From NCBI RefSeq assembly GCF_000012905.2, contig NC_007494.2, positions 870,001-902,000 of the forward strand: a DNA stretch of 32,000 bases, written 5' to 3'. The notes under the pieces are model-generated. The model ran no database searches. It saw only the letters and a list, made by a program, of their open reading frames with translations, and had not been told where the DNA came from. This stretch comes from Cereibacter sphaeroides 2.4.1. GTDB lineage: Bacteria; Pseudomonadota; Alphaproteobacteria; Rhodobacterales; Rhodobacteraceae. Of this stretch, positions 3,587-20,359 are shown in pieces (position 1 is the stretch's first letter; each line of letters opens with the position of its first letter). The position numbers and the translations under genes are program-made.

Positions 3587-4468
3587 TCATTCAGGGGCAC
3601 GCGGTTGACGAAGCACGTCGCGCATCCAGTCCAGCAAGGCCCGTGATGCTGATGTCATGCGTCGCTCCTTGGGCACGGTCAGCCAGTAGCTGCCCAGGGT
3701 CACGGTGGTGGCAAAGGGGCGTGTCAACCGACCCGCCCGAACATGGCGTTCGAACATCGGCGCAGGCAGCAAGGCAATCCCGAACCTCTCGGAGGCGAGG
3801 TCCGCCAGCCCGATCGAACTGTCCAGGATGGGCCCCGTCAGAGAAGGACAGCTTTCACCTGTCTGCGCGAACCAGGCCGGCCATTCATCCGCCCGATAGC
3901 TGCGCAGAAGCGTGTGCCGGTGAAGGTCTGACGGAACCCGCAGGCCCAGATCTGGAGCGCAGAATGGCGTCATGGGGGCATCCATGATGTGATGCGCCTC
4001 GAGCCCCGGCCACTGGCCGTCGCCGAAGCGGATCGCCGCGTCCAGCCCCTCCCGCGCGATCTCCACCCGGTTGTTGTGTGTGGACAGGCGCAACGTGATG
4101 CCGGGATGCGCGCGGCCGAATGCCTGCTGCCGGGGGATGAGCCAGCCCGCGGCAAAGGTCGTCACCACGCCGATGTTGAGCACTTCGCCCGCCTGCCCCG
4201 CCGCCACCCGGTCCAGCATGCGGGCGATGTCGTCCAGCCCGCGCTCCATCACCGGGAACAGCGCCTGACCCGCATCCGTCAGCATCAGGCCACCCGGCGT
4301 TCGCTGGAACAGGATCACGCCCAGCATATCCTCCAGCCGCGCGATCTGGTGGCTGACGGCGGCCTGGGTGACGCGCAGTTCGACGGCTGCGCGGGTGAAG
4401 CTGCCCTGACGAGCGGCCACCTCGAAGGTGCGCAGGGCGTTCAGCGGGATGTCGGGACGATCTGGCAT
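3587..4468 (-). CDS. ampR: LysR-family transcriptional regulator, AmpR-like
   Basis: 293-aa ORF with an N-terminal wHTH (LNALRTFEVAARQGSFTRAAVELRVTQAAVSHQIARLE) and a LysR substrate-binding domain. It is divergently transcribed from a class C beta-lactamase gene across a 92-bp spacer, the classical ampR-ampC layout. Confidence 0.8.
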   Translation of the reverse strand: MPDRPDIPLNALRTFEVAARQGSFTRAAVELRVTQAAVSHQIARLEDMLGVILFQRTPGGLMLTDAGQALFPVMERGLDDIARMLDRVAAGQAGEVLNIGVVTTFAAGWLIPRQQAFGRAHPGITLRLSTHNNRVEIAREGLDAAIRFGDGQWPGLEAHHIMDAPMTPFCAPDLGLRVPSDLHRHTLLRSYRADEWPAWFAQTGESCPSLTGPILDSSIGLADLASERFGIALLPAPMFERHVRAGRLTRPFATTVTLGSYWLTVPKERRMTSASRALLDWMRDVLRQPRAPE

Positions 4469-4560
4469 GAGATCTACTTATGTGCAGTCCAACCCTTTGT
4501 CGTCTGCCTCGTGCAGTCGGCGCGGTCTATCCCGGCTCCGATGATCACATAGGACCGGAC

Positions 4561-5703
4561 ATGAAGCACCTTTCCCCCCTCTCCATCCTGCTCATGGTGG
4601 GCGCGCTGACGCCCGCGCTTGCGCAAGACACCACGCCGTCGTTCGAGAGCGCCGCCGCCGCGGCCTTCGAGAGCGTCATCGAGGAGCATGACATTCCCGG
4701 TCTGGTGGTGGGCGTGACCCACGGCGGACGGCACAGTTTCTATCAGACAGGCTTGGCCTCACGGGAAGATCAGCAGCCGGTAACCCCTGACACGCTTTTT
4801 GAGCTCGGTTCGATCAGCAAGATCTTCAACGTGACGCTGGCGGCCTTGGCAGAGGAGCGGGGCGCGCTGTCGCTCGATGCGCCGGTCGCCGACTATCTTC
4901 CCTCCCTGCGAGGTTCTCCTGCAGGAGAGCTGACGCTGATCGATCTGGCGACGCACCATACCGGCGGCCTCCCGTTGCAGGTGCCGGACGAAGTTGCAGA
5001 TGTAGATCGCCTGGTCGACTGGCTACGGAGTTGGCGACCGCCCGAGCCCGGTACGCGCAGCTATTCCAACATCAGCATCGGCCTATTGGGGCACATCACC
5101 GCGGGCGTGCTGGGCATGAGCTATGCTGATGCGTCCCAGACGGTTATCTTCCCGGCGCTCGGATTGAAGAGCACGTGGATCGACGTCCCCACCGATGCGA
5201 TGGGACGCTACGCCTTCGGCTATGACCGCAAGACAGACGCGCCAACCCGGGTTACGCCCGGCGTGCTGGACGATGAAGCGTACGGGGTAAAATCCTCCGC
5301 TCGCGACATGCTGACGCTGCTCGACCTCGAGCTTGGAACCGGCACTGCCTCGCCCGAAGTTCAAACGGCGGTGGCCACCACGCAGGAGGGCCGGTTCCAG
5401 ACCCGCCTGTACACGCAGGCCATGATATGGGAGGCCTATCCTTGGCCTGTCGACCCAGAGCGTCTGGTGGAGGGGAACGGGTATGACTTCATCCTCCAGC
5501 CTCAGCCTGTGGACGAGGTGGACACGACACCCGATCGGAGGGTCATCCTGAACAAGACAGGTTCCACGAACGGCTTCGGTGGGTACATCGCGATCGTGCC
5601 AAGCGAGGATCTGGGCGTCGTCGTCCTTGCCAACCGCAACTACCCCAACGAGGCGCGGGTTCGAGCCACTTACGACCTGATCACTCACATCTTGGCCGAA
5701 TAA
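4561..5703 (+). CDS. ampC: Class C (AmpC) beta-lactamase with signal peptide
   Basis: ATG at 4561 with AGGA 7 nt upstream. The signal peptide is MKHLSPLSILLMVGALTPALAQ. All three class C motifs are present: S-x-x-K (GSISK), Y-x-N (YSN) and KTG (NKTGST). Confidence 0.9.
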   Translation: MKHLSPLSILLMVGALTPALAQDTTPSFESAAAAAFESVIEEHDIPGLVVGVTHGGRHSFYQTGLASREDQQPVTPDTLFELGSISKIFNVTLAALAEERGALSLDAPVADYLPSLRGSPAGELTLIDLATHHTGGLPLQVPDEVADVDRLVDWLRSWRPPEPGTRSYSNISIGLLGHITAGVLGMSYADASQTVIFPALGLKSTWIDVPTDAMGRYAFGYDRKTDAPTRVTPGVLDDEAYGVKSSARDMLTLLDLELGTGTASPEVQTAVATTQEGRFQTRLYTQAMIWEAYPWPVDPERLVEGNGYDFILQPQPVDEVDTTPDRRVILNKTGSTNGFGGYIAIVPSEDLGVVVLANRNYPNEARVRATYDLITHILAE

Positions 5704-5975: not shown

Positions 5976-6416
5976 CTACAACGCTTCATCTTCGTCCTCT
6001 TCGTCGCCTTCAAGGTCCTCCTCATAGTCCACCTTAAGCTGTTCAATCAACTCCACGGTGATCCACTGATAGCCCATCCGCGAAACGTGCCGATAGTGCC
6101 TTTCTTTGAATGAAGCGAGGGCCGACTTGAATTGCACCATGACAAGAACGGCGTCGCTGACCTGCGGCAGGTCATCGTCGTCTAGAGCCTCAAGATATTT
6201 TGCGTCTGGCTGGCCTTCGAGCACGACCAACAAGTTTTCAAGAACCCGGTTCACGATCTTGACTTTGCCCGCACTCATAGATGCGTCGGGCTTTTTCTTT
6301 GAAAGCTCTTTCACTTCGTCGAGCAAGGACGAAAACACGTCATGACTCGCTTCATACTCAGCGACCTTTGCATCTGTTGTTATATTGGGGAAATAGTAGT
6401 GGTCTTCAAATGCCAT
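5976..6416 (-). CDS. Small protein, paralogue B of cassette 1, with a poly-acidic C-terminal tail
   Basis: 146-aa ORF. Its ATG overlaps the stop of the upstream paralogue (TAATG at 6414-6418). It shares the core LSKKKPDASMSAGKVKIVNRVLE and SDAVLVMVQF with paralogue A. The C-terminus is DYEEDLEGDEEDEDEAL. I recognise no known family. Confidence 0.75.
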   Translation of the reverse strand: MAFEDHYYFPNITTDAKVAEYEASHDVFSSLLDEVKELSKKKPDASMSAGKVKIVNRVLENLLVVLEGQPDAKYLEALDDDDLPQVSDAVLVMVQFKSALASFKERHYRHVSRMGYQWITVELIEQLKVDYEEDLEGDEEDEDEAL

Positions 6417-6811
6417 TATTTTCTTCCAATCTTTGTCGGCGGGCCAGATCGAACTTCGCTCGCCCTTCCATCCACAACATAATACCAGCCGTAACTCCCC
6501 TTGACCGACGCGCTGATCACGTTGTCAGAGCGGAATCGCTCGGCTTCTTCCATATACTGCGCAACAACAATCGTAACATCGCTGGTCGAAGGGGCGTCGT
6601 CTGGATCAAAACTATCGAAGTCGTCGAAAGGCTTGTATTTTTCTCCAAGCACCTCGTTGCCCATCTCTAACACTCTGTTTATGAGCTTGAGCTTGAACGA
6701 GTTTACTGCGTCATTTGGGTTTTTCTTTGCAAGGGCTCCTACTTCGGAATAAAGTCCCTGAAGTTGGCCGACTAGTTTTTCGAGCCGTTCTACATCCTCT
6801 TTGCTGTCCAT
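6416..6811 (-). CDS. Small protein, paralogue A of cassette 1
   Basis: The ORF-track start is 6829. The ATG at 6811 is preferred because GGAGAG lies 3 nt upstream and overlaps the stop (TAG 6820-6822) of the nuclease gene. The core LAKKNPNDAVNSFKLKLINRVLE and SDVTIVVAQY align with paralogue B. Confidence 0.75.
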   Translation of the reverse strand: MDSKEDVERLEKLVGQLQGLYSEVGALAKKNPNDAVNSFKLKLINRVLEMGNEVLGEKYKPFDDFDSFDPDDAPSTSDVTIVVAQYMEEAERFRSDNVISASVKGSYGWYYVVDGRASEVRSGPPTKIGRK

Positions 6812-6819
6812 GATCTCTC

Positions 6820-8256
6820 CTATGGGCAAGCGCGTTGAAACTCGCGGTATTTCATGTTCAGAATGTCGAGCGGTGCGCGCTGTTTACTGTCGAAGACCTC
6901 GACCATCCGCTCCAGGTCAGCATCGGTGAGGGTAATCACGGCCTTCCGCTGCCCACCCCATAGATTGACTGTGCGCTGAAACTCCGCACGCTTGAGTGGT
7001 TTCCTTGTCACGAAGACCCCGAACTTGCCAAGCTCGTCTGTTAGGTAGCGGTTGATCTGGTCGATATGCGTTCGCTCAATTGCCGCGACGTTCTTCATCT
7101 CAAAGGTGATCTGTCGCGACCCGTAGTCGTCCATCAATTCTTGAAGAAGTGGCGTCGAGCGGGTGTTGTAGAAGATCAGGTCGCGGATGGACACCCCGTC
7201 GTCCGTTCGCGCCTGCTCCTGTGCAAAGTCAAGGCTTGGATAGAATAGTGACGGCAGCAATCGCCCGACCAACTTCTCATACTTCACGTCTGCGCCGTTT
7301 GTTTTCCCTGTCGGCAACTTCTTTATCTCGGCAAATACTCGCTTTGCCGAAGTGATGGGGATTTGAGAGAACAGCGGATCGTGCGCGCAATCATCTGCCG
7401 TGCGTTCTTTCAACTGGATATACTGATCAATGACGCCATAGTTTTGGCGATTATAGTTGAGAACCTTAACCCGCGTCAGTTCCTCGGGCTTGTGCGAAAT
7501 CTCATCTTGCGGGCAGTGCTTTTCAAAATACTCGTCGTAGCTGATCCACGGGGCAAACCGCAGCCACCGCTTTGGCACAAAGATAATCGGCGAGCCATTT
7601 TCAGGGTTCACGGGCAACGGTACGCCCACTTCCCGTTTAAACATACCTAAGCGAGCATCATAGACATGCTCAACGGTGCAATCCTGGGTCGGAACGCTGA
7701 GTTTTTGGCATTGCTCAATCGTGAAGTCGATCAGAAAAGATTTCAGGAAGTTGCAGCCAATATCAGAAATGCGGTCCTTTGATATTCCTTCGATGAAGAG
7801 CTGAATCTCCTCGAAGTGCCTGAAACCGCTCTGTTGATAGCGCGGAATCACTTTGAACAGGTCAATTATCTCGCGGGCCTTATCTGCTCCAATCCGCTTT
7901 CCCTTTCGGGTGAGGGACGTGCCCAAGCCGACTTCGTCGCACTCGGAGGCGATGATCAATGTTTCGATTGCCTGCGCTTCTTTGCCTTGCGCGGCGAGAA
8001 CCCCAAGGTGATTGAAGGCGTTGATTAGGCCTATGTGCAGCCCATGATCCTGCTGAGAGGGCGATCGCCATAGCATAAAGGGGTCTAGGTAAAGGGGAAT
8101 GTCCTCATCCAGAAACGGAATCGCGAAGTCGAGATCGACCTGTGCGGCGTGAATCCCATGATAGTCTGTAAGACGAGGTCGAATAAGCAAAGGTACCGCC
8201 GCATGCTGGGGGAGGTTGCTTCGTCGATACCAAATACTGCGGGTCGTTGGCAACAA
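6820..8256 (-). CDS. Uncharacterised 478-aa protein with a C-terminal PD-(D/E)xK (RecB/Shedu-like) nuclease motif set
   Basis: Long ORF in the AT-richer region. The listed start is a TTG, so the true start is uncertain. The C-terminal 110 aa carry SIRDLIF (D), ITFEMKN (ExK) and IDQINRYL (QxxxY) in the order typical of RecB/Cas4/DUF4263-type nucleases. I do not recognise the N-terminal ~350 aa (IPLYLDPFMLW, GLGTSLTRKGKRIG). Confidence 0.6.
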   Translation of the reverse strand: MLPTTRSIWYRRSNLPQHAAVPLLIRPRLTDYHGIHAAQVDLDFAIPFLDEDIPLYLDPFMLWRSPSQQDHGLHIGLINAFNHLGVLAAQGKEAQAIETLIIASECDEVGLGTSLTRKGKRIGADKAREIIDLFKVIPRYQQSGFRHFEEIQLFIEGISKDRISDIGCNFLKSFLIDFTIEQCQKLSVPTQDCTVEHVYDARLGMFKREVGVPLPVNPENGSPIIFVPKRWLRFAPWISYDEYFEKHCPQDEISHKPEELTRVKVLNYNRQNYGVIDQYIQLKERTADDCAHDPLFSQIPITSAKRVFAEIKKLPTGKTNGADVKYEKLVGRLLPSLFYPSLDFAQEQARTDDGVSIRDLIFYNTRSTPLLQELMDDYGSRQITFEMKNVAAIERTHIDQINRYLTDELGKFGVFVTRKPLKRAEFQRTVNLWGGQRKAVITLTDADLERMVEVFDSKQRAPLDILNMKYREFQRACP

Positions 8257-8501: not shown

Positions 8502-8815
8502 TGCGAGGCGCCGCGAAAGGCATGGCGCAGGCACGAGGGGCGGCTGCAGCCCTCGCATCCGCGAAGATCTTCGATTGCGGCCATCCGTCATGCGCCTGGA
8601 GAGCGACACAATCGGCAGAAGGATCACAATGAGTTTTGAGCCACCAACGGACGCTTCTATGAACGAAGGCCGCCGCTCGTGTAAGATACTGGCAACGCAG
8701 CCAGCGCATGAAATGCCAGCTTCTCGTAGGGTGAGAGATTGTCACGCAATTTTGGCAGCGCTTGATCCATAGGTTCCTTGGGCGAAGCTTCGACCATGTT
8801 GGAGGGGAAGATAGA

Positions 8816-9778
8816 TTGGACAGTTTGCAACGTGGGGCCGCGGGAAGAGACCTGGTGTCCTTTCAGGTCAGATCGCTTCTTCAAAGTAGTTGGCAGAATA
8901 TCGATCCTGAAAACGATAACGGTATCGACGGTATAATTTCCTTACGAGAAGGAAAAGCGTTCCTCGGAAGGTTATTGTTCGTTCAGGTGAAAAGCGGGCC
9001 ATCCTTCTTGTTGGACTACAAGCGGAAACGCGTCTCCGGATATATTGGGGTAAAAATTGGCAAAGATTATATAGCGACTCATCGACCACGCTGGGAAGCG
9101 CTGCCTGGCCCTGTAATTCTTGTCTATGTCGCTGAACCTGACAAGAAAACTTCATCTATTTTTTGGCAGAACCTGAAATCAGATGCATCCTATTCCTCAA
9201 CAAATAAGAATGTGGTTCTTATCCCGCGGCATCAGACATTCGGCAGCGAGGCCAAAGGAGCGCTGCGGCGATTAACAGGCTCTAAAGCTGATGATGCGCC
9301 ACTTAAGAATATCGACATGCGGAAGATTGAGCGACTGTCGCAAATTTCGGTCCATGACAGGAAATCCGCTCGACAATTCTACAGGGAATGGTCGCAATCG
9401 AACCTCCGGCACCATCCTGAATTGGGGGACATCGAAGTCACAAATGCGGGTTGGAGACATCTCACAAGGCGCAGTAGAAATCCCGAAAACATACAAAACT
9501 CATTCTTCCTGCTTGAGGCCGCACGCCAGATGATTATTCAGGGAGCTGACTGGAGACAGTTGGGCAGCGCTAAAACGCGTGAACGATCGCAGACAACCGA
9601 TGTTCTCGATGCCTTGTCTCTGCGAGCCAGCGTAACTTTCAAATCGCGAGCTCCCGCCACTGTGCAGGTAATTATTCGCAGAACGCGTTCCATCTGCAAA
9701 TTGACCGGGTCAGGAAGGTCTCGTCTATATTTCTACAGCGTCCATGAGCTTCGCCGGGGAAATTCTATATCCTACTGA
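8816..9778 (+). CDS. DUF4365-like (PD-(D/E)xK fold) protein with an uncharacterised C-terminal half
   Basis: The track ORF starts at TTG 8762. The in-frame TTG at 8816 has GGAGGGG 8 nt upstream and leaves the usual ~33 residues before the DUF4365 signature. That signature is DNGIDGIISL...LLFVQVKSG (D-x-GID ... VQVK). Start choice is uncertain. Confidence 0.6.
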   Translation: MDSLQRGAAGRDLVSFQVRSLLQSSWQNIDPENDNGIDGIISLREGKAFLGRLLFVQVKSGPSFLLDYKRKRVSGYIGVKIGKDYIATHRPRWEALPGPVILVYVAEPDKKTSSIFWQNLKSDASYSSTNKNVVLIPRHQTFGSEAKGALRRLTGSKADDAPLKNIDMRKIERLSQISVHDRKSARQFYREWSQSNLRHHPELGDIEVTNAGWRHLTRRSRNPENIQNSFFLLEAARQMIIQGADWRQLGSAKTRERSQTTDVLDALSLRASVTFKSRAPATVQVIIRRTRSICKLTGSGRSRLYFYSVHELRRGNSISY

Positions 9779-9887
9779 GTGCGGTGGTGGACGCAACGCC
9801 CAAGCACAACTGAGGCAACCCGAAGGGCCTCACCCCAACTTGCACGTATGCCGGCTTTGGGTTGCCGAAGACGTTGGTCCACCGACT

Positions 9888-10193
9888 TGACTGACTGCAC
9901 GAAACACTGAAAGTTTGCAATCATGGATTTCTGTCATGAGCCCCGCGCGAAGCGTCAGACCTCGTTCTGCATGGCAAGTAAGTGTTTGGCTGCACTCAAT
10001 TGACGCAAAGCCCTCAACAATCACTGAGAAATGGCTGTTCGGTTCCTTCGCTCTGGCGCGTTCAAACGGCAGCTATCGTGAAGCCGAGTGTGGCAACCGA
10101 TAACCCTCGACAGGCAGCTCAGGGCCGAGTCTGCATGCTGCGACCGAGCGCCCCAGAGGGCGGGAAGCCGACTGAGGGCGGTGCAGTCAGTCA
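9888..10193. repeat. 306-bp non-coding segment bounded by a perfect 13-nt inverted repeat (TGACTGACTGCAC / GTGCAGTCAGTCA)
   Basis: The left arm is 9888-9900 and the right arm is 10181-10193. It lies in the convergent gap between the DUF4365 gene and the RES gene. Internal ORFs (62-64 aa) show no coding character. Confidence 0.45.
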
Positions 10194-10248
10194 GTCTCCT
10201 TGCCGCGGCCGAGCCACGCCGCAGAAGCAAAATCGATGGGTTCTGACC

Positions 10249-11682
10249 CTAGAAACCTGGGTCACCGACGCGAGCATGATACTCGACAGGGATCTCGGCA
10301 ACATCGAAGTGAATCCCTGTCACCTCCGTTCTGATCAACGTCCCGGTGAAGCTTAGAGCGGGCTCGATTGGAACGACCGGATCAACAACCCAAACCTCAA
10401 GTCCGCCGATGAAGGTATCGTCAGTCTCTTGTCCGGCTTCAGCCACAGGTACAGGCTCACGATAGGAGACTGCTTGCACGGGAGGCTCCCCCTCATCGGG
10501 GTCTCCACTCCAGACGAACGCCTGAACGATGTCGCGTGGCACTTCCTCGTCAGCGCCGGCGATTTTGGCGGCATGAGGAAACAAGACCAAATTTGAGTGA
10601 TCGCCGCTCATTTGAGCCGAGCCGAAAATGATGCCGTCGACCCGATTCTCATCCCTAGTCCAGAGGTACTCCGCTACCACCTGGGTTGGAAGATATTCGA
10701 GTGCTTCGCGGCCAGGAATGACGGCGCGCTTGATCTCATTGTGGAAGCCCCGGAGGTAGCTCCGGTAGGCCTGCGCCCGCAGATAGTCAGGGTGAAAATA
10801 GCTCAGGCGGTTTCCAATCGAGCTGAGCTGCGTGAGGTCAAGAAGTCGAAGCGGCCGGGCCACTTCGAAGCGGCCGACGATCGACGAGCCTCCAACCGGA
10901 ACCCGTGTTTCAGCAACACAGGTCGCAACGTCAAAACTCCCGTAGAAAACTGGTATGCCGGTCACATTCATTCTGCCGGCGGTGCAATGCTCTGGCGGTG
11001 GCGGACCAAGCTGCCTGATAGGAGCGGCAAAGATCGCGCGCCGACTGGCATCATCGTTCGCGACCCGAGCCCGATAGACGAAACGGTTCTCATCTTGCGG
11101 TGTGATCGTGCGGATTGCTGCGCCGTAGTCCGTATTTTCGCCCCGTAGGATCGGCCCAAGAATCTCATCAAGACGCTCTTCTGCAACATCGCTGAAGAAG
11201 CGCCGACCGTGTTTCAGAGACTCGCAGAACGACTGCCAGAGGTCCCGATACCGGCGATCGTCGGGAAGGCGAATGACGTATTTGTCCTCGGTCGTATCGT
11301 AGCAGTCGTATCCACCATCATGGATGTCGAACTGATGTTGGGAACCGAGGAGGTCGAGCACGTCCTCCGCGATCTTGTCGTCGGAGGCGATCAGCATTTC
11401 ACTCAGGAGCGTGATCGCGCTATCGCCGTTGGCCTGCCAGCTCGTACGATCGTCATCCCCGATATAGGGCGTAGGCTCGGCTTCGCCGATCAGCTCCCGC
11501 CACACTTCGTCGATTCTCTGGCCTAGCCAGCGAATTGAAACGGTAGAACTATGATCCTGGTTGCAGTAGTCGCACTCGCGGACGCCGCCTTCAGCTTCGA
11601 TTTCGTCTGAGAGAACCTCGTCGCCGATGCACTCATCGCAGACGAAAGGCCCTACTTCGTCTTCCTCGTCGTCGTGACTCAT
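10249..11682 (-). CDS. RES-domain protein with a Cys-rich N-terminal module (HEPN/RES-NTD1-like)
   Basis: Start taken at ATG 11682 (MSHDDEEDEVGPFVCDEC...), which overlaps the helicase stop (ATGA). The 47 codons upstream in the track ORF lie inside the helicase gene. The N-terminus has CDEC...CDYC. The RES signature is YRAR...GRMNVTGIPVFYGSFDVATCVAETR (R, E) and VDGIIFGSAQMSGDHSNLVLFP (S). Confidence 0.8.
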   Translation of the reverse strand: MSHDDEEDEVGPFVCDECIGDEVLSDEIEAEGGVRECDYCNQDHSSTVSIRWLGQRIDEVWRELIGEAEPTPYIGDDDRTSWQANGDSAITLLSEMLIASDDKIAEDVLDLLGSQHQFDIHDGGYDCYDTTEDKYVIRLPDDRRYRDLWQSFCESLKHGRRFFSDVAEERLDEILGPILRGENTDYGAAIRTITPQDENRFVYRARVANDDASRRAIFAAPIRQLGPPPPEHCTAGRMNVTGIPVFYGSFDVATCVAETRVPVGGSSIVGRFEVARPLRLLDLTQLSSIGNRLSYFHPDYLRAQAYRSYLRGFHNEIKRAVIPGREALEYLPTQVVAEYLWTRDENRVDGIIFGSAQMSGDHSNLVLFPHAAKIAGADEEVPRDIVQAFVWSGDPDEGEPPVQAVSYREPVPVAEAGQETDDTFIGGLEVWVVDPVVPIEPALSFTGTLIRTEVTGIHFDVAEIPVEYHARVGDPGF

Positions 11683-12797
11683 CCGGGTACCCATTTGGTA
11701 GCAGCGACGCTGCAGATCTTTCCGTCGTGGACGAAGGCCACGCTGTACCGAGCGCGTGTGACGGCTACGTACATTTTCGTCAAGGATTTCTCGACATGTC
11801 TGATGTCGCCCGACGCGAGCCATTTGCGAGCCGGCCCGTGCGGGTAGATCAGGACCCGCTCAAAAGTCAGGCCCTTTGACTCCCCAAAATTCATAGCTTC
11901 GTCGAGATCACAATTGGTCGCAGCGGAATACCGGAGCACCTGTGGGGCGAACCGCTTCATGTATTCACCGACGTCTGCGCTGGAGACGAGAAACACTCCG
12001 TCGTGTCCCGTCACCTTGTCGTTTCGCGAAACGGTCTTCGGCTCATTCGGGAAAAAGCCGTCGCCCAGATCCGCAATGGTTTGGTTGCAGCGGTGTGTGT
12101 GGGTTTCGTACTCGATCTCGACGAGCCCCTGCTTCTTCCACAGCTCGAACTTCTTGATGATGGCCGGGCCAGAAAACACTTTGTTTTTCGAAGCGTTGTT
12201 CGTGGCAAAGGTGGCCTGCCGGTGGTCACCGACAAAGGTGACCGGGACGCCCGCTTTTAGTATCAACTCCAAGAGGTCGAGATCGTACCCGGCCATGTCC
12301 TGGATTTCGTCGATGATGATGTGGCGGAAGCGCTGCTTCAGTCGGCGCATGATAGCGCCACCCGATCGTCGGTCACACTCACAAACAAACTTCGCGATCT
12401 TGTCCGAATAAATCCGGGAGCCATCAAAAAAGTAGTGACCGCTGGTCCGCGCTTCGGGAATGTAGGGGACCGACTTCCCTTCAACCCAGTGGATGCCATC
12501 AACCCGACTCGCATGCATGGCTGAACGATAGGGACGGGCAAGCTCCCGCAGCAGAAACGAGTACCAAGAGATGACCTCCACATGGGAGGGAATGGTGCGT
12601 GTGCGTTCGTATGCCTTAAGCTGAATTTCGCGGACATTGTTGCGAGTATAGGTGATTAGTGCCGTTGCTCCCTGCCCTTGCTCGCACGCCAGCGCCTGGT
12701 CGACGACGCGCGTGGTCTTTCCGCCCCCGGCGGCGGATATCACGATGCGATTAACGGACAGCACGGGCGATATAGTCCGGAGGCGACCACTCCACAT
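11679..12797 (-). CDS. Minimal SF1 UvrD/PcrA/Rep-like helicase (GajB-like, 372 aa)
   Basis: Motifs present: I AAGGGKTT, II IIIDEIQD, III VGDHRQATF, V ESKGLTFERVLIY and VI YVAVTRARYSV. The ATG at 12797 lies 47 nt inside the OLD gene; an in-frame GTG at 12764 is an alternative start. The protein is short because there are no obvious 1B/2B insertions. Confidence 0.85.
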   Translation of the reverse strand: MWSGRLRTISPVLSVNRIVISAAGGGKTTRVVDQALACEQGQGATALITYTRNNVREIQLKAYERTRTIPSHVEVISWYSFLLRELARPYRSAMHASRVDGIHWVEGKSVPYIPEARTSGHYFFDGSRIYSDKIAKFVCECDRRSGGAIMRRLKQRFRHIIIDEIQDMAGYDLDLLELILKAGVPVTFVGDHRQATFATNNASKNKVFSGPAIIKKFELWKKQGLVEIEYETHTHRCNQTIADLGDGFFPNEPKTVSRNDKVTGHDGVFLVSSADVGEYMKRFAPQVLRYSAATNCDLDEAMNFGESKGLTFERVLIYPHGPARKWLASGDIRHVEKSLTKMYVAVTRARYSVAFVHDGKICSVAATKWVPG

Positions 12798-14349
12798 TTG
12801 TTTCGAAGAATTTAAGGCCGGTCTCAGCCTTGTATTTGATCATGTGCTCGATAGCGGAAGCTTCATCCGCGAAGGCCTTGCCGAGTACAGCGTTGATCGT
12901 CGCCAGGCCGTTCTTCTTCACGAGCTGGGGCTCGAGCGTGTGGGCCGTTTCGTCTTTATCGTATTGGATTTTAACGATGTCGGAGTTCAGGTACTCGGCG
13001 TATTTTTTCTCCAACGCGGCAACATCAGCATCGTTGTCGGTCACGATATCGGCTGTCTTTTTTAGGAGAACTGCGATTTCGAGGAAGCGCTTGAATGCGA
13101 GCGAATTCACGGAAATAACATCAACCCCATCCTCCAGCGGCATCTTGCCGTGCTTCATATGGTAGGCGCGTTGGACGATCAACTCGTCTGACGGCCCCTC
13201 CACGAGGATCGAACGCTTCGCGAGGATGAGCCGCAGCGTGTCGTGCCCCGGCAGCTTCATAAAATAGTTCTGTGTAGTCCTATCCTTCAGGTCGGTCAGG
13301 CGCACACCCTCGCCGCGCAGGAACAGAAGGACCGACTCCACGCCAAGCTTGTTGAGAACGAAGCTGCTGTGCGTCGTGATAAATATTTGCCGCGAGCCGG
13401 CGTTTGCCGCAATGTGGCCTATCAGCTCGTTGAGGCTGGCGTAGGAGAGGTGGTTTTCAGCTTCTTCAATCAGGATGATGTGGGATTTTGCCGATGTCTC
13501 CATCGCGAGCTTGATCTTGACCGAATTCTGCTCGCCTTTCCCGACGAGTGGCAAAGGGATGTCGTCCAGGTGAGGCATGATTCCTGCCTCCCAGTTCGCC
13601 CGAGCGGAGGTGTCGAGTGAAACCGAGATAACCTTGTCGCTGATCTTCCCCTTTTTTGCCGCGAGCGCGTCGTTGATCGCCTTGACCTTCGGCTCTTCAA
13701 GAAAGCGGTCCTTCATGAGCCGATAGGTCAGAGCGAGGTCAACCTTCTCTTTCGAGGTGAGGCTCTCCTTCACGATGTCGATTACGTAGCGGCTGGCTGC
13801 CGCGTTGTTCTTGATCGTACTGGCATCGATCAGGCTCGCGTGAAGTGGAATGACGCGCGAGTTTAGAATGTCGTTCTCGGCGAAATCCCTCCACTTGATC
13901 CAGTAGTACTCCATTGGGATCGTACGAATTTCGGACGGGTCGGAGACGTATTGAGCAAAGTCTTCTGCGTACGCAGGGTTGAGATCAATTAGGAGCGCCA
14001 CGCCGGGAAGGTCAAGGCCAAGGGTGTTGTTGTTGCCTTTGAGCTTCGTTAGAGCGGGATCGTCGGCTAGGTACACCTCGATTAGGATTGATGGCGGTGC
14101 CGGCGCACGACCCGCCTTTAGTGCTTCGATGTACTCAAGAACGAGATCGAGATTGAACAGATGAGGATGGAGTTCAATCTGGAGAGGCCGGCCATTGAGT
14201 TGACCGGTGAGCGCTAGGTGGATCGCTTCGAGGAGGGTGGATTTTCCACACTCGTTGTTTCCGACAATGACGTTCAGTTTGTCATTGAAGGTGACGTTTG
14301 CCTGCTTAAGGCAGCGGTAGTTTCTGATAACCGCGCGTTGGATGAACAA
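12751..14349 (-). CDS. OLD-family ATPase + TOPRIM nuclease (class 2 OLD / GajA-like)
   Basis: Walker A GNNECGKST, Walker B/D-loop HIILIEEAENHL and H-loop FITTHS. C-terminal TOPRIM with ILVEGPSDE and VTDNDAD. The track start 14400 is a TTG directly abutting a candidate -10 box. The in-frame TTG at 14349 has AAGGGAG 8 nt upstream and gives the family-typical N-terminus (M)FIQRAVIRNYRCL. Confidence 0.85.
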   Translation of the reverse strand: MFIQRAVIRNYRCLKQANVTFNDKLNVIVGNNECGKSTLLEAIHLALTGQLNGRPLQIELHPHLFNLDLVLEYIEALKAGRAPAPPSILIEVYLADDPALTKLKGNNNTLGLDLPGVALLIDLNPAYAEDFAQYVSDPSEIRTIPMEYYWIKWRDFAENDILNSRVIPLHASLIDASTIKNNAAASRYVIDIVKESLTSKEKVDLALTYRLMKDRFLEEPKVKAINDALAAKKGKISDKVISVSLDTSARANWEAGIMPHLDDIPLPLVGKGEQNSVKIKLAMETSAKSHIILIEEAENHLSYASLNELIGHIAANAGSRQIFITTHSSFVLNKLGVESVLLFLRGEGVRLTDLKDRTTQNYFMKLPGHDTLRLILAKRSILVEGPSDELIVQRAYHMKHGKMPLEDGVDVISVNSLAFKRFLEIAVLLKKTADIVTDNDADVAALEKKYAEYLNSDIVKIQYDKDETAHTLEPQLVKKNGLATINAVLGKAFADEASAIEHMIKYKAETGLKFFETNVEWSPPDYIARAVR

Positions 14350-14400
14350 ACTCGTGACTCCCTTCGCCGTGTACACTGCTATGAGGCACAGCTTAAGCAA

Positions 14401-14430
14401 AGTCTACAAGGGCGGGTGCGGCTCAATCAA
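14401..14430 (-). promoter_or_regulatory. Candidate sigma70-type promoter of the OLD-UvrD-RES operon
   Basis: The minus strand reads TTGATT (14430-14425), an 18-nt spacer, then TAGACT (14406-14401). Each hexamer matches consensus at 4 of 6 positions. This is pattern match only. Confidence 0.3.
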
Positions 14431-14726
14431 GTCTAGCCGACCAGAAGAAGCTGGATAGTGAATTCTTGGGTCGGTCGACCTTCGACCGGGTCCATCCGTG
14501 GCTGAAGCGGCCAGACTCAATGCCGTGTTTCAAATCGCAGGTAGCTTGACGGAGGCGAAGAGCAGTAAGCCTGACAGCATCTGCGATCGTGTTCAGGTGC
14601 TTTGCTGCGGCACCGCCTGAACGGCGGCTTCGGAAAGTGCTGCCACGCAGCATGAAACGACCCCGACCGGCGGCTATGGGCCGGGTGCGCTATCTTGCCG
14701 CGCTCGGCCACCTAGCAGCGGAAGTC

Positions 14727-14800
14727 CGGTTCCTGCGCATCGCCGCCCTCCGAGCGCAGGGCGGCGAAAGACCGCAGACAGCCCCTAGCTGCCGGTCGTA
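14727..14800 (+). repeat. Cassette-boundary repeat, copy B
   Basis: 14740-14784 TCGCCGCCCTCCGAGCGCAGGGCGGCGAAAGACCGCAGACAGCCC matches copy A at 38 of 45 positions. It contains a perfect 8-bp hairpin GCCGCCCT-N8-AGGGCGGC (14742-14765). It lies about 150 nt downstream of the restriction endonuclease gene end. Confidence 0.7.
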
Positions 14801-14951
14801 CGGGACGCGTCAAGACGCTAGGCGCCTTCGCAGAGTGCGGAAAGCGGTATAAGAGGTTGCGGCATCGCAGCCGCAGGCGGGACGTGCGTTTGTGGCACAA
14901 GGCAGCCAGCCTCGTTGTCTATTTGTTGCGCTTGGGGCGACGACAATCTTG

Positions 14952-15809
14952 TCAGGACAAACGATAGATGCCCAAGTCCGAGCCGGTGATCTCGCGTGCC
15001 GGAACGAGTCGATAGTGTTTCTCCTGCACGATCGAGACGTCATGTTCGTCGAAGTAGAGCTCGAACATGGCGATGACGTCGTCGCCCATGAATTGAGCAG
15101 ATACAGTCCGGGCCACGCAATGCCGGTATCGTTCGGCAGTTCGGCAGAAGATCGTGTCCTGAATTGTCTGAATCACGCCGAGCCGGTCGCTGCCACCCTT
15201 GGCCTGGACGGGGACGATGAACTGAGCGCCCTTGGAATCCAGGCCGACGTAGAGCTCGTCGATTTCGATCTGCCCGTAGTTCGGGATCTTCGTCCGAAGA
15301 TGGTTTTGCAGACTGTAGGCCGTGATACCCAGGAATATGTCGATGAGCCGGTTGTAGCGCACCTTCGCGAGCAACGCTTGCTCGTCGCCGAGCGCATACT
15401 GAGCGATGATCTCGGGGGTCGCGTCGGGGATTTTCCTGACGAGCAGTCCGGGTGTCGGCTCGATGTAGCAGAGCTTGCTGAGGCGGAAACGATAGCGGGC
15501 GTCGCCGGCGCCGAGGATAAGCCAAAAGCGGCCCGTAGGCTGACAATCCAGGATCGCCTTTGGCAGGCTGCGCCTGTAGCGGAACGTGTAGATCACGTCG
15601 CCGAGATTCTTGGGGGCCTTGACGCCCGTCCTGACGGCGGCCTCGTAGATTTCCTCGCGGCCGAACTCGAACTCCTCCATGCCCGGCCGATAGAACCGTT
15701 GGAAGATGTCGACGATGATCGCCTGATAGGCGTTCAATGTCTTCGGCTCGGCGGAAGTGACGGCCGCCTGGGCTTCTGCCGAAACGTTCTCGGGTTCAGG
15801 ATCAGCCAT
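14952..15809 (-). CDS. Putative type II restriction endonuclease (specificity unknown)
   Basis: 285-aa ORF whose ATG overlaps the methyltransferase stop by 8 nt (ATGGCTGA). It has a PD-(D/E)xK-like segment IEIDELYVGLDSKGAQFIVPVQAKG. The call rests mainly on operon context with the m5C methyltransferase and Vsr. Confidence 0.55.
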   Translation of the reverse strand: MADPEPENVSAEAQAAVTSAEPKTLNAYQAIIVDIFQRFYRPGMEEFEFGREEIYEAAVRTGVKAPKNLGDVIYTFRYRRSLPKAILDCQPTGRFWLILGAGDARYRFRLSKLCYIEPTPGLLVRKIPDATPEIIAQYALGDEQALLAKVRYNRLIDIFLGITAYSLQNHLRTKIPNYGQIEIDELYVGLDSKGAQFIVPVQAKGGSDRLGVIQTIQDTIFCRTAERYRHCVARTVSAQFMGDDVIAMFELYFDEHDVSIVQEKHYRLVPAREITGSDLGIYRLS

Positions 15810-17133
15810 TTACCACACGTAATTGGACACGCGCCGCTTCGATCTCGTGCTGCTTGCGCTTCTTTGCGCCGCTCTTTCGGTCGCGCCGCGAGGACGGCGC
15901 TGCCACTCCGAAGTGCTCCGCCGCTTCCGACATCTCCATGTAGAGCAACGAGGGCTCTCCCAAATCGATTGCACGCGCAGGCCGCTCCGGGGCGACGCCC
16001 AGTGCTCGGACTATCTCGGAGGCGACCGCGCGGGCGAGGGGCGGCGGCACGGAGTTGCCGACTTGCCTTCCGCCATGCCACTTAGTGGCGTGGAGCCTGA
16101 ACCAATCGGGGAACCCGTGAAGCCGCGCCATCTCGCGCACGGTGATGCAGCGGTTGTACTCGTAGTGGATCGGCCGAGGACTGGTGAAGGCCCCCCGGGC
16201 ACCGTCAGTGCCTGCCCTCAGAGTGTTGCAAAGGCCGCCCGGTGCCAGCTTGTAGAAGCGGCTGATCGGCTCAACCGCCCCTTGCGGGGTCTCTTGGAAG
16301 CGCCGGCGAGAAATTTCCGAATGGGCCGTGCGCGCGCTGGATGTCATCCATGTCGGCGTCCAGTTCCGGGGATAGCCGTAATGCCAGGCATCGTTGTTCA
16401 GGCAGCGCAATTCGGCCGCGTAGGTAGACGGCTCGCCCATGGCAGAGGTCCGAACAGCGTCGCTCTCCACGAGCGAGGCGAACCGATCTGCATCGGGAAG
16501 GTCCTCGATCGCGTCCCGAACGGTCGGGCCGCCAGGAAGGTGAGCGAGCGGTTTTCGCGCGTCGGCTGCATTCGTCTGGGGCGGGGGGATCTCGGGAAGC
16601 GTCTCGCCTCGCTTCGCTCCGATGAGGAAAAGGCGTTGCCGATGCTGCGGCGTTCCGTAGTCCGCCGCATCGAGAACCTTCCAAGGCAAGCGAACATCGT
16701 AGCCCGCCATGCCGAATGCGGCGACGAGCTCGCTGAGGAAGGTCCGATGGGAGCCAACCGTCAGCCCCTTGACGTTCTCGAAGACGAAGGTCCGTGCATC
16801 GAGCTCCCGCACCAGGCGTACGAACTCGAGCACCAGGCTGTTGCGTGGATCCTCCAGGGCGCGGTGCCCGATCAAGGAGAAGCCTTGGCAGGGCGGCCCA
16901 CCGAAGACACAGTCGATGGGGCGGTTCCCGATGCCGGCGGATTCGCGGATCTCCTCGGCCGTGAGCCCCACGACCGACCGCGGGATTACGGCGGTGTCGG
17001 GGAAGTTGAACTTGTGCACGGCGCAGTGCACGGGATCGATCTCGACGGCAGCGGCAACGTCGAAGCCCGCCTGCTCGAAGCCGAGCGACAGGCCTCCTGC
17101 GCCGGCGAACAGGTCGATTCCAATAGGTCTCAA
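15802..17133 (-). CDS. DNA cytosine-5 methyltransferase
   Basis: Motif I IDLFAGAGGLSLG, motif IV GGPPCQGFS, motif VI FVFENVKGL and motif X GNSVPP. The TTG start at 17133 has GAGGAAG 7 nt upstream. Confidence 0.92.
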   Translation of the reverse strand: MRPIGIDLFAGAGGLSLGFEQAGFDVAAAVEIDPVHCAVHKFNFPDTAVIPRSVVGLTAEEIRESAGIGNRPIDCVFGGPPCQGFSLIGHRALEDPRNSLVLEFVRLVRELDARTFVFENVKGLTVGSHRTFLSELVAAFGMAGYDVRLPWKVLDAADYGTPQHRQRLFLIGAKRGETLPEIPPPQTNAADARKPLAHLPGGPTVRDAIEDLPDADRFASLVESDAVRTSAMGEPSTYAAELRCLNNDAWHYGYPRNWTPTWMTSSARTAHSEISRRRFQETPQGAVEPISRFYKLAPGGLCNTLRAGTDGARGAFTSPRPIHYEYNRCITVREMARLHGFPDWFRLHATKWHGGRQVGNSVPPPLARAVASEIVRALGVAPERPARAIDLGEPSLLYMEMSEAAEHFGVAAPSSRRDRKSGAKKRKQHEIEAARVQLRVVNG

Positions 17134-17184
17134 AGGTTTGCTTCCTCGGCTGGCGCGGATCGGACTGCAGATTAGCCTACCGCA

Positions 17185-17625
17185 TCATGCTTGTCGATCG
17201 GTTTTCGTCGGCCCGAGGAATGCGCACAACCGCGATCCCACGCGCTCGATGTCTTTCAGTTCGCACTGCCAGACGACCAGCGTCTGCCAGCCGAGCGCCT
17301 CGAGCTCGGAGAGCTTCCTGCGATCCCGTGCGACGTTCGCCTCGATTTTCGGGCCCCAGTAGTCCAGTCGAGAGGTCGGCAACCGCCCCTTTGCGCAGTC
17401 GTGTCCGTGCCAGAAGCACCCGTTCACGAAGATGGCCTTGTGCCGGGCTGGGAAGACTATGTCCGGTTGTCCGGGCAGAGACCTCGCGTGGAGTCGATAG
17501 CGATAGCCTTTTGCGTGCAGCAACGAGCGCACGATGAGCTCGGGGCCCGTGTTCTTGGTCCCCACCGCCCGCATGATCTGCCGGCGTTGCTCCGGAGATC
17601 TCGTGTCTGCCATTCGGCTCACCAT
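17185..17625 (-). CDS. vsr: Very-short-patch repair endonuclease
   Basis: 146-aa ORF with typical Vsr strings RSPEQRRQIMRAVGTKNTGPE, PGQPDIVFPARHKAIFVNGCFWHGH and YWGPKIEANVARD. It lies directly upstream of the m5C methyltransferase on the same strand. Confidence 0.92.
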   Translation of the reverse strand: MVSRMADTRSPEQRRQIMRAVGTKNTGPELIVRSLLHAKGYRYRLHARSLPGQPDIVFPARHKAIFVNGCFWHGHDCAKGRLPTSRLDYWGPKIEANVARDRRKLSELEALGWQTLVVWQCELKDIERVGSRLCAFLGPTKTDRQA

Positions 17626-17865
17626 TGCTCGCTGTGTTGAGCGCTATGTACGCCCGGCGGAAGATCTGCTCAACGATGAGCGGGTGAAGGTGACGGTTGC
17701 TACCGGCCTGCAACCTGTGCTTCAAGCCACGACCCTGGTGCGTTATCCGTCCGAGGCCCGCCGAAATCTCTGTACATATTTCGCGACGCAATGACCGGTC
17801 GCAGCGGTGCGGCCGTGGAAGGGGCACGGCTGGCGCGCGCATCAGGTCGCCTGCCAGCGTGGCCA

Positions 17866-18348
17866 TCAGCGTCCGCGGACCTCGAGCAGCTTCGAGCGGA
17901 CAAGCGCATCCATCGTCTCGGACGAGGGCGACAGGCGCTTCAGCGCGTCGGGCACCGAGGAGCGGGCATAGGCAGCGACAAACTCTGTCGCGACCTCCCG
18001 CGTCAACCCCTGCGCTACCGCCACCCGTGCAGCGGTCATGATCGCCGAGTGCAGCGCCTCGCGATGTCGGACCTCGATCTGGATCCCGGTCCAGCGCTGG
18101 AAGCGGACGGTCGCGAGCCCGATCAGCGCGGTCAGCGCTACGCCAGCGAGATCGAGGAGGCTCGGCGTCAGCGCGGTCAGCAGGTCGCTACCGGTCGAGG
18201 CGGCGGCGGGCCCGGCGAGCGTGGCGAGGATCGAGGCCGAGATCGTCGAAGCGGCCAACCGCGCCAGAGCAGCGACCAGCGGCCAGCCGATGAGCAATAT
18301 GAAGGCGAGCGCGCAGAGGGCGAGGGCAAGGATGAAGATCAGGGACAT
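17866..18348 (-). CDS. Phage membrane protein, putative holin or lysis accessory protein
   Basis: 160-aa ORF 13 nt downstream of the endolysin gene. It has hydrophobic N-terminal helices (LIFILALALCALAFILLIGWPLVAALARLAA; LLDLAGVALTALIGLATV). Function is inferred from position only. Confidence 0.5.
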   Translation of the reverse strand: MSLIFILALALCALAFILLIGWPLVAALARLAASTISASILATLAGPAAASTGSDLLTALTPSLLDLAGVALTALIGLATVRFQRWTGIQIEVRHREALHSAIMTAARVAVAQGLTREVATEFVAAYARSSVPDALKRLSPSSETMDALVRSKLLEVRGR

Positions 18349-18360
18349 GGGTTCTCTCCT

Positions 18361-19170
18361 TCAGAGGCGGGCGAACTGGAAGTGCATCCAGTCGCGGTTG
18401 CAGGCGCGGCCGAGGCCTGTGGCGCCGGCGGCTTCGACGATGGTCCAGAAGGGCTCGTAGGCGGGCGCGGCGAAGCTCGCCCGGTCGCGGCCCCAGCGGA
18501 GCGGATTGCGCTCCGGGTCGAGGTCGACGGCGATGCCCCAGGCATGCATCGAGAGGGCCGAGCCGCCGCGCATGGGCCGGTGGTTGAAGCAGCCGCCGAA
18601 GAGGTTCAGCCGCAGCCGCTCGAACTCGGCCGCGCCGTAGTGGGCCACGGCCTCGCTGAAGATCCGCGCCATGGGCGCCGCCACCAGCCTGTGGCAGCGG
18701 AAGCTCGTGATGCTCGTATTGAGATCCCAAGCCAGGCGGAACGGCATCGGCAGCTCGACGATCCCGGCCGTGCAGTCGGGGCCGCCCGCCACGCCGTAGA
18801 AGGTCGCGACCGACTCCTGCCGGGGATAGGCGCCCTGGGCATCGGCCACGGCATGGCCCGGCAGCGGCACCCGGTCGACGGCGGCGCGCACCGGCCCGGA
18901 GGCCCATGCGGTCAGCGCCTCGCGGGTGTTCGGCCCGAGGAGCCCGTCGATCCTTCCCGGCGCATGGCCGAGCCGCGCCAGCACCGCTTGGCCGGCCGCG
19001 ATCCGCTGCCGGCGGGAGGGCCAGGCGCGCCAAGGTACCGGCTCTCCCTCGAGCGCCGCCCTTGCGGCCGCCTGGGTCAGCGGCCCCGCATCGCCGTCGA
19101 TGGCGCCTCGGTAGAGCCCCGCGGCCGCGAGCAGCCGCTGGATGTCGGATGTCGTCACGTCTTTCTCCAT
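18361..19170 (-). CDS. Endolysin: two PG_binding_1 repeats plus an M15-type zinc peptidase domain
   Basis: ATG at 19170 (the track start 19176 is a TTG). The PG-binding repeats are LLAAAGLYRGAIDGDAGPLTQAAARAAL and VLARLGHAPGRIDGLLGPNTREALTAW. The catalytic motifs are SMHAWGIAVD (SxHxxGxAxD) and DWMHFQ. Confidence 0.85.
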   Translation of the reverse strand: MEKDVTTSDIQRLLAAAGLYRGAIDGDAGPLTQAAARAALEGEPVPWRAWPSRRQRIAAGQAVLARLGHAPGRIDGLLGPNTREALTAWASGPVRAAVDRVPLPGHAVADAQGAYPRQESVATFYGVAGGPDCTAGIVELPMPFRLAWDLNTSITSFRCHRLVAAPMARIFSEAVAHYGAAEFERLRLNLFGGCFNHRPMRGGSALSMHAWGIAVDLDPERNPLRWGRDRASFAAPAYEPFWTIVEAAGATGLGRACNRDWMHFQFARL

Positions 19171-19174
19171 ATGC

Positions 19175-19198
19175 AAAAGCCCCGCGCGAGGGCGGGGC
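19175..19198 (-). terminator. Rho-independent terminator-like hairpin between the methylase and endolysin genes
   Basis: The minus strand reads GCCCCGC-CCTCGC-GCGGGGC followed by TTTT. This is a 7-bp all-GC stem, a 6-nt loop and a U-tract that ends 4 nt before the endolysin ATG. Confidence 0.55.
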
Positions 19199-19224
19199 GT
19201 GGGTGGTCGGACTGGTGGGGTTTT

Positions 19225-20031
19225 TCAGAGGAGGGTCGCGATCCGCTCGCGGTTCGAGACGAGGAGCTCCTGCGCCTCGGTGCTGCCTGCAGCGGAGACC
19301 GAGTAATTCAGCCGCACCGGCTCGAGATGGAACCGGCCGAAGAGCGCCCGGATCTCGGGCGTGTCATTGATCGACAGGAGGAAGGCGCCCTTGAGGCTGC
19401 CGAGGATCTCGGCGATCCGCGCGAACTGCGCCCGGTCGAAGAGACCTTTCCCATAGTCGTTCTCGCCGCCGAAGTAGGGCGGATCGAGATAGAAAAGCGT
19501 CTCGGCTGTGTCGTAGCGCGGGATGAGGTCGGCCCAGTCGAGGCACTCGAAGACCACGCCATCGAGCCGCGTGCGGGCGGCGTCGAGGAGCGGCTCGAGG
19601 CGCGCCAGCGAGAAGAGCGGCCCATTGCCGGGCGATATGCCGAAGCTGCCGTTCGGCTTGCCGCCGAAGCTGAGGCGCTGGAGGTAGAGGAACCGCGCCG
19701 CCCGCTCGAGGTCGGTGAGCGTGGCGGGATCGGTGAGCCGCAGCCGATCGAACTCGCGCCGGCTGCAGATCTGGAACCGCATGATCTCGAGGAGTTGGGG
19801 GTAATGCCGCTGCAGGATCCGGAAGAGATTGATGATCTCGCCGTTGCGGTCGTTCATCACCTCGAGGCGGGGCCGGAAGCGGCGGCGGAGGAAGATCCCG
19901 CCCATGCCGACGAAGGGCTCGACATAGGCGCGGTGCGGGATGGCCTCGATCCGCTCGAGGATGAGCGGGTGGAGACGTTTCTTGCCGCCGAGCCAGGGGG
20001 CAACCGGGGCGGCGGGAGGTACTTGTTTCAT
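19225..20031 (-). CDS. Prophage-encoded orphan N6-adenine DNA methyltransferase (Dam/D12 class)
   Basis: ATG at 20031 (MKQVPPAAPVAPWLGGKKRL...). Motif I is EPFVGMGGIF and motif IV is DPPY (YLDPPYFG), in alpha-class order. There is no adjacent endonuclease. The 76 codons upstream in the track ORF look non-coding. Confidence 0.85.
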   Translation of the reverse strand: MKQVPPAAPVAPWLGGKKRLHPLILERIEAIPHRAYVEPFVGMGGIFLRRRFRPRLEVMNDRNGEIINLFRILQRHYPQLLEIMRFQICSRREFDRLRLTDPATLTDLERAARFLYLQRLSFGGKPNGSFGISPGNGPLFSLARLEPLLDAARTRLDGVVFECLDWADLIPRYDTAETLFYLDPPYFGGENDYGKGLFDRAQFARIAEILGSLKGAFLLSINDTPEIRALFGRFHLEPVRLNYSVSAAGSTEAQELLVSNRERIATLL

Positions 20032-20327: not shown

Positions 20328-20359
20328 GTGCGGGAGCCTCAGGCGTGAGGTTCCCGCAC
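20328..20359. terminator. Strong hairpin (14-bp stem with one G-U, loop GGCG) downstream of the lipoprotein gene
   Basis: GTGCGGGAGCCTCA-GGCG-TGAGGTTCCCGCAC read directly from the sequence. There is no clear U-tract, so terminator function is tentative. Confidence 0.35.

Follow-up and report, generated by a model that had tools for sequence, protein, structure and literature searches.

A PDC-M36 operon of Cereibacter sphaeroides encoding a predicted PD-(D/E)xK nuclease and two paralogous small proteins

The PDC set comprises 145 candidate phage-defence systems that were predicted by 'guilt by embedding', their genes being derived from those embedded in BREX, DISARM or type I restriction-modification (R-M) loci (Payne et al., bioRxiv 10.1101/2024.01.29.577857). 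One of them, PDC-M36, is listed in the supplementary table as CAS_00134, FAM_01399>>FAM_00303>>FAM_00303, with the number 90 beside the entry and without phenotype, domain assignment or mechanism (bioRxiv 10.1101/2024.01.29.577857); an A-B-B arrangement in which one small family is represented twice had thus been recorded before. Here we analyse a three-gene operon of this type, encoding a large protein (A) followed by two small ones (B1 and B2), in a 32,000-nt stretch of chromosome II of Cereibacter sphaeroides 2.4.1 (NC_007494.2, 870,001 to 902,000; this whole stretch is the window, and positions are counted from its first letter). All three proteins match the PDC-M36 hidden Markov models (HMMs) of PADLOC-DB v2 over their full length, the A>>B>>B order on one strand is identical, and no difference from PDC-M36 was found. 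An earlier reading of this DNA, made from the letters alone (the original prediction), had held that no named system fits; that claim gives way to the PADLOC candidate with the same A>>B>>B architecture, and the operon is a catalogued phage-defence candidate and not a new discovery. PDC-M36 was not among the several PDCs that one study put to the test, and a literature search on sphaeroides, PADLOC and Gabija returned nothing.

The enzymes that resemble A most are of the Mrr/MspJI type (type IV / IIM) and the FokI/Nt.BspD6I type (type IIS), which likewise carry a C-terminal PD-(D/E)xK domain behind a large N-terminal domain. They are the best fold matches of A, and Mrr_cat and PDDEXK_3 are weakly matched by members of its family. 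However, the expect values (E) are 3e-3 or higher and the template modelling (TM) scores 0.28 or lower, and the N-terminal domain of A is unrelated to the DNA-recognition domains of these enzymes; we also know of none that has paired small partner proteins. Type II toxin-antitoxin systems resemble the operon in combining a potentially toxic enzyme with a small, translationally coupled partner, and a sister clade has the order B-A, but B shows neither a known antitoxin fold nor a DNA-binding domain, two paralogous partners lie downstream of the enzyme here, and relatives of A without B exist. To the catalogue entry we add a corrected start for A, a placement of its nuclease domain among known subfamilies, the apparent autonomy of its N-terminal domain, the finding that neither this domain nor B has a known fold, a deep A-B partnership with variable order and copy number, and survey data that place the acidic tail of B2 outside the predicted core.

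Gene structure and identity of the operon

The three genes lie on the minus strand (coordinates in Table 1). The stop codon of A (TAG, 6822-6820) overlaps the Shine-Dalgarno sequence AGGAG (6821-6817), which a spacer of 5 nt separates from the ATG of B1 (6811-6809), while the stop codon of B1 (TAA, 6418-6416) and the ATG of B2 (6416-6414) have one base in common in the sequence TAATG (6418-6414). Three coupled open reading frames (ORFs), an A stop inside the B1 Shine-Dalgarno sequence and a TAATG overlap of the small genes had all been described in the original prediction; the junctions are indeed as described there, and the gaps are conserved in relatives. Rfam and tRNA scans of the window were both empty.

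In its widest form the ORF of A covers 6820-8256 and encodes 478 aa from a TTG codon. The length of 478 aa given for the large protein in the original prediction is correct for the ORF; the conserved start lies further downstream. Homologues of A are 455-457 aa long, the full-length alignment to PADLOC model PDLC04597 (E = 6.7e-224; positions 3-456 of a 457-position profile) begins at residue 24 of the 478-aa ORF, and public gene calls differ in the start, so that the protein has 477 aa in NCBI records but 456 aa in one ENA assembly. Given the homologue lengths, the point at which the PADLOC alignment begins and the one 456-aa gene call, the conserved form of A is most likely a 456-aa protein that starts at TTG 8190. 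Close homologues of A and the public C. sphaeroides gene calls for the locus carry the precomputed label PF28123 (DUF8370), a model newer than the Pfam copy that we scanned, and the label for A is taken from these homologues and gene calls. A, B1 and B2 have no match in the local Pfam copy (for A, none at E up to 1) or in NCBIfam, and PDB sequence searches with A and with its profile gave no match.

A is widespread, with more than 2,500 clusters at 90% identity among the scored candidates and 1,582 representatives after clustering at 50%. A scan of one genome per species, with an alignment of 14 closer A sequences, yielded 365 loci of the A-B1-B2 clade, of which the best 80 (57-94% identity) were used for synteny; their taxonomic range takes in Alpha-, Beta-, Gamma- and Deltaproteobacteria, Cyanobacteria, Acidobacteria, Chloroflexi and Bacteroidota, among others. 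In 76 of the 80 genomes, B1 and B2 lie in this order downstream of A on the same strand; the four exceptions are contig ends. The gap from the A stop to the B1 start is 0-18 nt at 74 of these 76 loci, and the gap between B1 and B2 is at most 20 nt at 72 of them. Because this order and these short gaps recur, the A, B1 and B2 genes are real, far beyond chance.

The two domains of A

The C-terminal part of A contains the motifs SIRD(337)LIF, FE(364)MK(366)N and DQ(378)INRY, with D337 encoded at 7182-7180, E364 at 7101-7099, K366 at 7095-7093 and Q378 at 7059-7057. In a family alignment of 40 sequences at 22-83% identity, K366, N367 and Q378 are invariant, and D337 and E364 are at least 90% conserved. 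The AlphaFold2 model of A (predicted local distance difference test, pLDDT, 91.5; predicted TM-score, pTM, 0.82) positions D337 on strand 335-342 of an alpha/beta core and E364-x-K366 on or just after strand 360-365. Foldseek searches of the PDB and BFVD with A returned top matches that are all restriction-type folds, namely MspJI, Nt.BspD6I, FokI, the RPB5 N-domain, NucC, Can2 and phage 'restriction endonuclease' proteins; probabilities reached 1.0, yet the E-values and TM-scores are weak, as given above, with MspJI as the best PDB fold match. Weak profile matches were found among the 40 family members to PDDEXK_3 (11 members), Mrr_cat (3) and Cas4 (1, E = 0.085). The PD-(D/E)xK C-terminus that the original prediction had named is upheld by the D, ExK and Q residues falling on invariant or near-invariant family columns; for this predicted domain the nuclease call is sound, and it is closest to the Mrr/PDDEXK_3, MspJI and FokI folds.

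The same source had placed the domain in the RecB/Cas4/Shedu group, which is not borne out, as no such Pfam match was found and PADLOC gives PDC-M36 models only. Shedu (SduA, DUF4263) resembles A as a PD-(D/E)xK defence nuclease with a variable N-terminal region but is a single-gene system, and it was rejected because A has no DUF4263 match in Pfam (E up to 1). Cas4/RecB nucleases have the motif order D, ExK and Q-x3-Y in common with A; they were rejected on the lack of a Pfam match, the Cas4 match in one of the 40 relatives being at chance level. A further differs from them in having no C-terminal Cys (iron-sulphur, Fe-S) cluster, its cysteines lying at 84, 146, 161, 171, 226, 268 and 455, and the Tyr of its Q-x3-Y motif is not conserved in distant clades. 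A 28%-identical relative of the A nuclease domain (aa 264-440), annotated as hypothetical or as 'ATP-binding protein', occurs in ~110-kb plasmids of Klebsiella, Citrobacter and Enterobacter and in two Klebsiella phage records that match these plasmids in size; the replicons may be phage-plasmids.

The N-terminal domain of A has no match in Pfam, PDB or BFVD by sequence and fold searches. It is thus unrecognised, as originally noted, though it spans ~295-310 aa and not the ~350 aa first given. It is matched by phrog_27295 and phrog_30194, both entries without a function in PHROG. Residues D30, D36-P37, E83, G90, G97, D139 and S142-D143 are invariant in the 40-sequence alignment and are kept in all family clades. 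Since this conserved site is acidic, it may bind a metal or ligand and not simply contact DNA. Two small-plasmid proteins of ~305-315 aa, one from Bacillus amyloliquefaciens and one from Acinetobacter schindleri, consist of the N-domain without the nuclease and retain all of the invariant residues, and no B-like gene was found near either. Because these residues persist in proteins that lack the nuclease, comparison of the family indicates that the N-domain is an autonomous module with a conserved site.

The B proteins and the arrangement of A and B in other clades

B1 and B2 match PADLOC models PDLC04599 (E = 2.5e-47) and PDLC04600 (E = 1.1e-38), respectively, both over their full length, and have no significant match in Pfam, NCBIfam, PHROGs or PDB. 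Their paralogy, already seen in the original prediction, is supported by BLASTP (33% identity over 98 aa, E = 2e-11), and a patch comprising K30-x-P32, N45, P74-x-x-S77-D78 and Q85 is invariant in both. In the AlphaFold2 model of B1 (pLDDT 94.6), three long helices accompany a three-stranded beta-meander, and the tail (aa 113-131, VDGRASEVRSGPPTKIGRK) is basic and disordered; neither the B1 fold search nor a sequence search with the B profile found a relative of the B family in the PDB.

B2 ends in DYEEDLEGDEEDEDEAL, and its tail (aa 123-146) has a net charge of -12 over 24 residues, whereas the nuclease domain of A has an isoelectric point (pI) of 8.7. Tails were surveyed in 70 complete cassettes, with a net charge of -6 or lower in the last 25 residues counted as acidic. 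An acidic B2 tail is present in only 24 of the 70, mostly close alphaproteobacterial relatives together with one Pseudodesulfovibrio and one Terriglobia genome, and many B2 proteins stop right after a conserved Trp. A basic B1 tail of the type PPxK(I/L)xxK occurs in 62 of the 70. The original prediction had pointed to an acidic, DNA-mimic-like tail; as a defining feature of the operon, at 24 of 70 cassettes, this does not hold, and the tail is, as judged from its distribution, not part of the core mechanism but a lineage-specific refinement at most. In a metagenome-assembled genome of Afipia sp. (L009, 7761-9322), B2 is split by a ~1-kb IS630-like element, seen as two transposase ORF fragments, while A (456 aa) and B1 are intact.

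Relatives of A at 30-35% identity, from metagenome contigs, form a clade in which a single B-like gene lies immediately upstream of A (detected at 70 of 71 loci by an HMM built for this clade and at all 71 after a further iteration). The single B of this B-A clade has no acidic tail, and no fused B-B protein was found among the 71 loci. Two of the loci have the arrangement B-A-B (L099, 613-2743, and L100, 3626-5759, both metagenome contigs), which may be intermediate between B-A and A-B1-B2. The occurrence of a single B at 30-35% identity indicates that the A-B partnership is old and that the duplication of B is clade-specific, as far as can be read from these sequences. More distant relatives of A (22-29% identity) form a standalone clade with no detectable B within 4 kb of A on 18 predicted viral contigs, and likewise no B was detected beside the standalone A of Bacillus mycoides plasmid p419. 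On p419 (L093, 2264-12987) the standalone DUF8370 nuclease is flanked by a Gabija-like pair (TOPRIM/OLD and UvrD), an integrase, and a pair made up of an AAA ATPase and McrC, a second case in which a member of the A family adjoins Gabija-type genes. The full A-B1-B2 cassette is scarce in viral collections, with nine loci in IMG/VR and none in sequenced phages. Standalone A, B-A, B-A-B, A-B1-B2 and the N-domain-only proteins together offer a natural series in which the role of B can be compared.

No fourth gene is conserved beside the cassette. Among 131 nearest neighbour genes from the 80 genome loci, grouped into listed top families, none is common to more than five loci, and occasional neighbours include AbiEii, GmrSD, UvrD/GajB-type helicases, XhoI and integrases. 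Since the flanking genes vary and no fourth gene is conserved, the cassette is probably horizontally mobile. The listed top families contain no methyltransferase, and a classical R-M system was rejected on this ground.

Proposed mechanism, alternatives and island setting

We favour a reading in which the operon is a self-contained, mobile, nuclease-based module against phages or plasmids, in which the N-terminal domain senses or binds the target and B gates A, and we put the probability of this reading at roughly 55%. Taking the gene structure, conservation, folds, motifs and genomic context as observed, we infer a scheme in which A would be the effector and its C-terminal Mrr/FokI-like PD-(D/E)xK domain would cut DNA, an activity that A could in principle exert alone. 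The DUF8370 domain, with its own invariant acidic/His pocket and Gly-rich loop, would recognise the target or trigger, or would form a second catalytic site. Translational coupling would lead to B1 and B2 being made in fixed proportion with A, and the two would probably associate with A as a heteromer, in place of the homomer that the one B of the B-A clade would form. In this complex, B1 and B2 may control the timing of A activity, most likely by acting as a safety catch that infection releases, with the basic B1 tail and, in this lineage, the acidic B2 tail as putative add-ons to the core. That distant relatives of A occur without a detectable B, on the viral contigs and in the plasmid defence island of Bacillus, suggests a regulatory role for B, outside the catalytic core.

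Several results are consistent with a defence module of this kind: the full-length match of all three proteins to the predicted PDC-M36 candidate, the position in a low-GC (guanine plus cytosine) defence island beside a prophage lysis module, the conservation of the catalytic D...ExK and Q at 22-83% identity with restriction-type folds, the A-B1-B2 synteny with short gaps, the mobility of the cassette, the old partnership of A and B, and the existence of standalone A. Other points weigh against it. The Foldseek E-values of the modelled A are weak (3e-3 or higher), the direction of the regulation by B, as inhibitor or activator, is not constrained by the results, and the literature search found no experiment on PDC-M36, PF28123 or DUF8370 and no mention of them. 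In other genomes most immediate neighbours are housekeeping genes, which leaves guilt by association modest outside the window. The Afipia locus, with B2 split and A intact, argues weakly that B2 is not an indispensable brake. If PDC-M36 does defend, it would be a widespread immune module with a sensor domain and small partners that have no known relatives. A stronger version of this proposal, which we offer tentatively as possible but short of even odds, is that DUF8370 nucleases and their B partners form a mechanistically new immune class, unrelated to any characterised defence system. The N-domain, which exists also without the nuclease, would then be a fold not seen before, serving as sensor or enzyme and having an active site of its own, and B would be a new small regulator, a homomer in one clade and a duplicated heteromer, B1/B2, here.

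The coupling of the genes, and the small acidic partners that accompany a nuclease, could also be read as toxin-antitoxin or addiction, with A as a DNA-cutting toxin held by B1 and B2 as continuous antitoxins, so that the operon would stabilise the island or prophage rather than confer immunity. The small gene upstream of the nuclease in the B-A clade is placed as in classic type II pairs, and the cassette is found on mobile DNA, including plasmids and prophage-like contigs. However, B has no recognisable DNA-binding or autoregulatory domain and matches no known antitoxin family, the small genes are downstream of the toxin in the A-B1-B2 clade, A is intact in Afipia where the insertion splits B2, and relatives of A do without a detectable B; we consider addiction unlikely. 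The relatives without B bear as well on a constitutive type IV-like enzyme, in which the N-domain would read a modification of phage DNA, the Mrr-like domain would cut, and B1 and B2 would serve as subunits for structure or assembly and not as a switch. These single-gene relatives beside McrBC and Gabija-like genes, the lack of a methyltransferase among the listed neighbour families of the 80 genomes, MspJI as best PDB fold match and the weak Mrr_cat matches of some family members would fit such an enzyme, but Foldseek found no SRA, winged-helix or other known reader fold in the N-domain, its invariant residues are acidic and not basic, and all of the similarity scores are weak. To our knowledge there are no type IV enzymes with paired small subunits, and this explanation is likewise improbable.

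A proposal built on the tail pointed out in the original prediction, that the acidic B2 tail mimics DNA and blocks the nuclease as its core control, draws on the charge of -12 over 24 residues opposite a mildly basic nuclease domain (pI 8.7) and on the presence of acidic tails in more than one lineage. Against it stand the survey, with strongly acidic tails in only 24 of 70 cassettes and many B2 proteins that extend no further than the conserved Trp, and the lack of such a tail on the lone B of the B-A clade; we give this proposal little credence. A role outside defence, in DNA repair, recombination or upkeep of the adjacent prophage, would be in keeping with the use of PD-(D/E)xK nucleases in repair and with the many housekeeping neighbours elsewhere, but it is very hard to reconcile with the patchy distribution, the variable flanks, the GC content foreign to the host, the position inside a defence island and the discovery of the family embedded in R-M, BREX or DISARM loci.

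The operon is a good experimental target and, on present evidence, not a new kind of system; the copy in the window is clean and intact, in a genetically tractable host and in an island beside a prophage. It occupies one end of an island that is low in GC (51-59% over ~5.9-16 kb, against ~68% in the flanks), the remainder of which occupies 8762-17133 (Table 1). The location in a defence island claimed in the original prediction is substantiated by Gabija, a HEPN/RES protein, a DUF4365 protein and a C5 methyltransferase as neighbours. The 285-aa ORF that adjoins the C5 methyltransferase could be its restriction partner.

Table 1. Coordinates of the operon, its parts and other features (window positions unless a contig is named)
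Feature	Position	Strand	Basis or remark
Gene A (PDC-M36A; DUF8370 family)	6820..8190	minus	456 aa from TTG 8190 (most likely start); open frame reaches 8256
N-terminal domain of A, ~aa 1-295	7306..8190	minus	alignments A1 and A8
Predicted C-terminal PD-(D/E)xK nuclease domain of A, ~aa 296-456	6823..7305	minus	alignment, fold, profile matches
A-B1 junction	6809..6822	minus	read directly from sequence
Gene B1 (PDC-M36B), 131 aa	6416..6811	minus	PADLOC PDLC04599
TAATG overlap, B1 stop / B2 start	6414..6418	minus	read directly from sequence
Gene B2 (PDC-M36B paralogue), 146 aa	5976..6416	minus	PADLOC PDLC04600, paralogy to B1
Acidic C-terminal tail of B2, aa 123-146	5979..6050	minus	computed charge -12; some lineages only
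LysR-type regulator (ampR-like)	3587-4468	minus	
Class C beta-lactamase (ampC-like)	4561-5703	plus	
DUF4365 protein	8762-9778	plus	weak Aga-REase N-terminal match
HEPN/RES protein	10249-11823		
Gabija GajB	11679-12797		
Gabija GajA	12751-14400		
285-aa ORF	14952-15809		no matches; adjoins C5 methyltransferase
Type II C5 DNA methyltransferase	15802-17133		
Prophage arm	17177-32000	minus	
Endolysin	18361-19176		phrog_17001, E 8.8e-95
Dam-type N6-adenine methyltransferase	19225-20262		
Tape-measure protein	24594-30008		
N-domain-only DUF8370 protein	L095 3998-4945		Bacillus amyloliquefaciens plasmid
N-domain-only DUF8370 protein	L096 3956-4870		Acinetobacter schindleri plasmid

Strains free of the island were sought through the ampC protein, but all that this look-up retrieved belonged to the same lineage. 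The ampR/ampC-like pair itself (3587-5703) is divergent, has the GC content of the host and forms the left border of the island. On the other side the island begins directly after the lysis genes of the prophage arm, and the defence island may for this reason be cargo at the prophage end.

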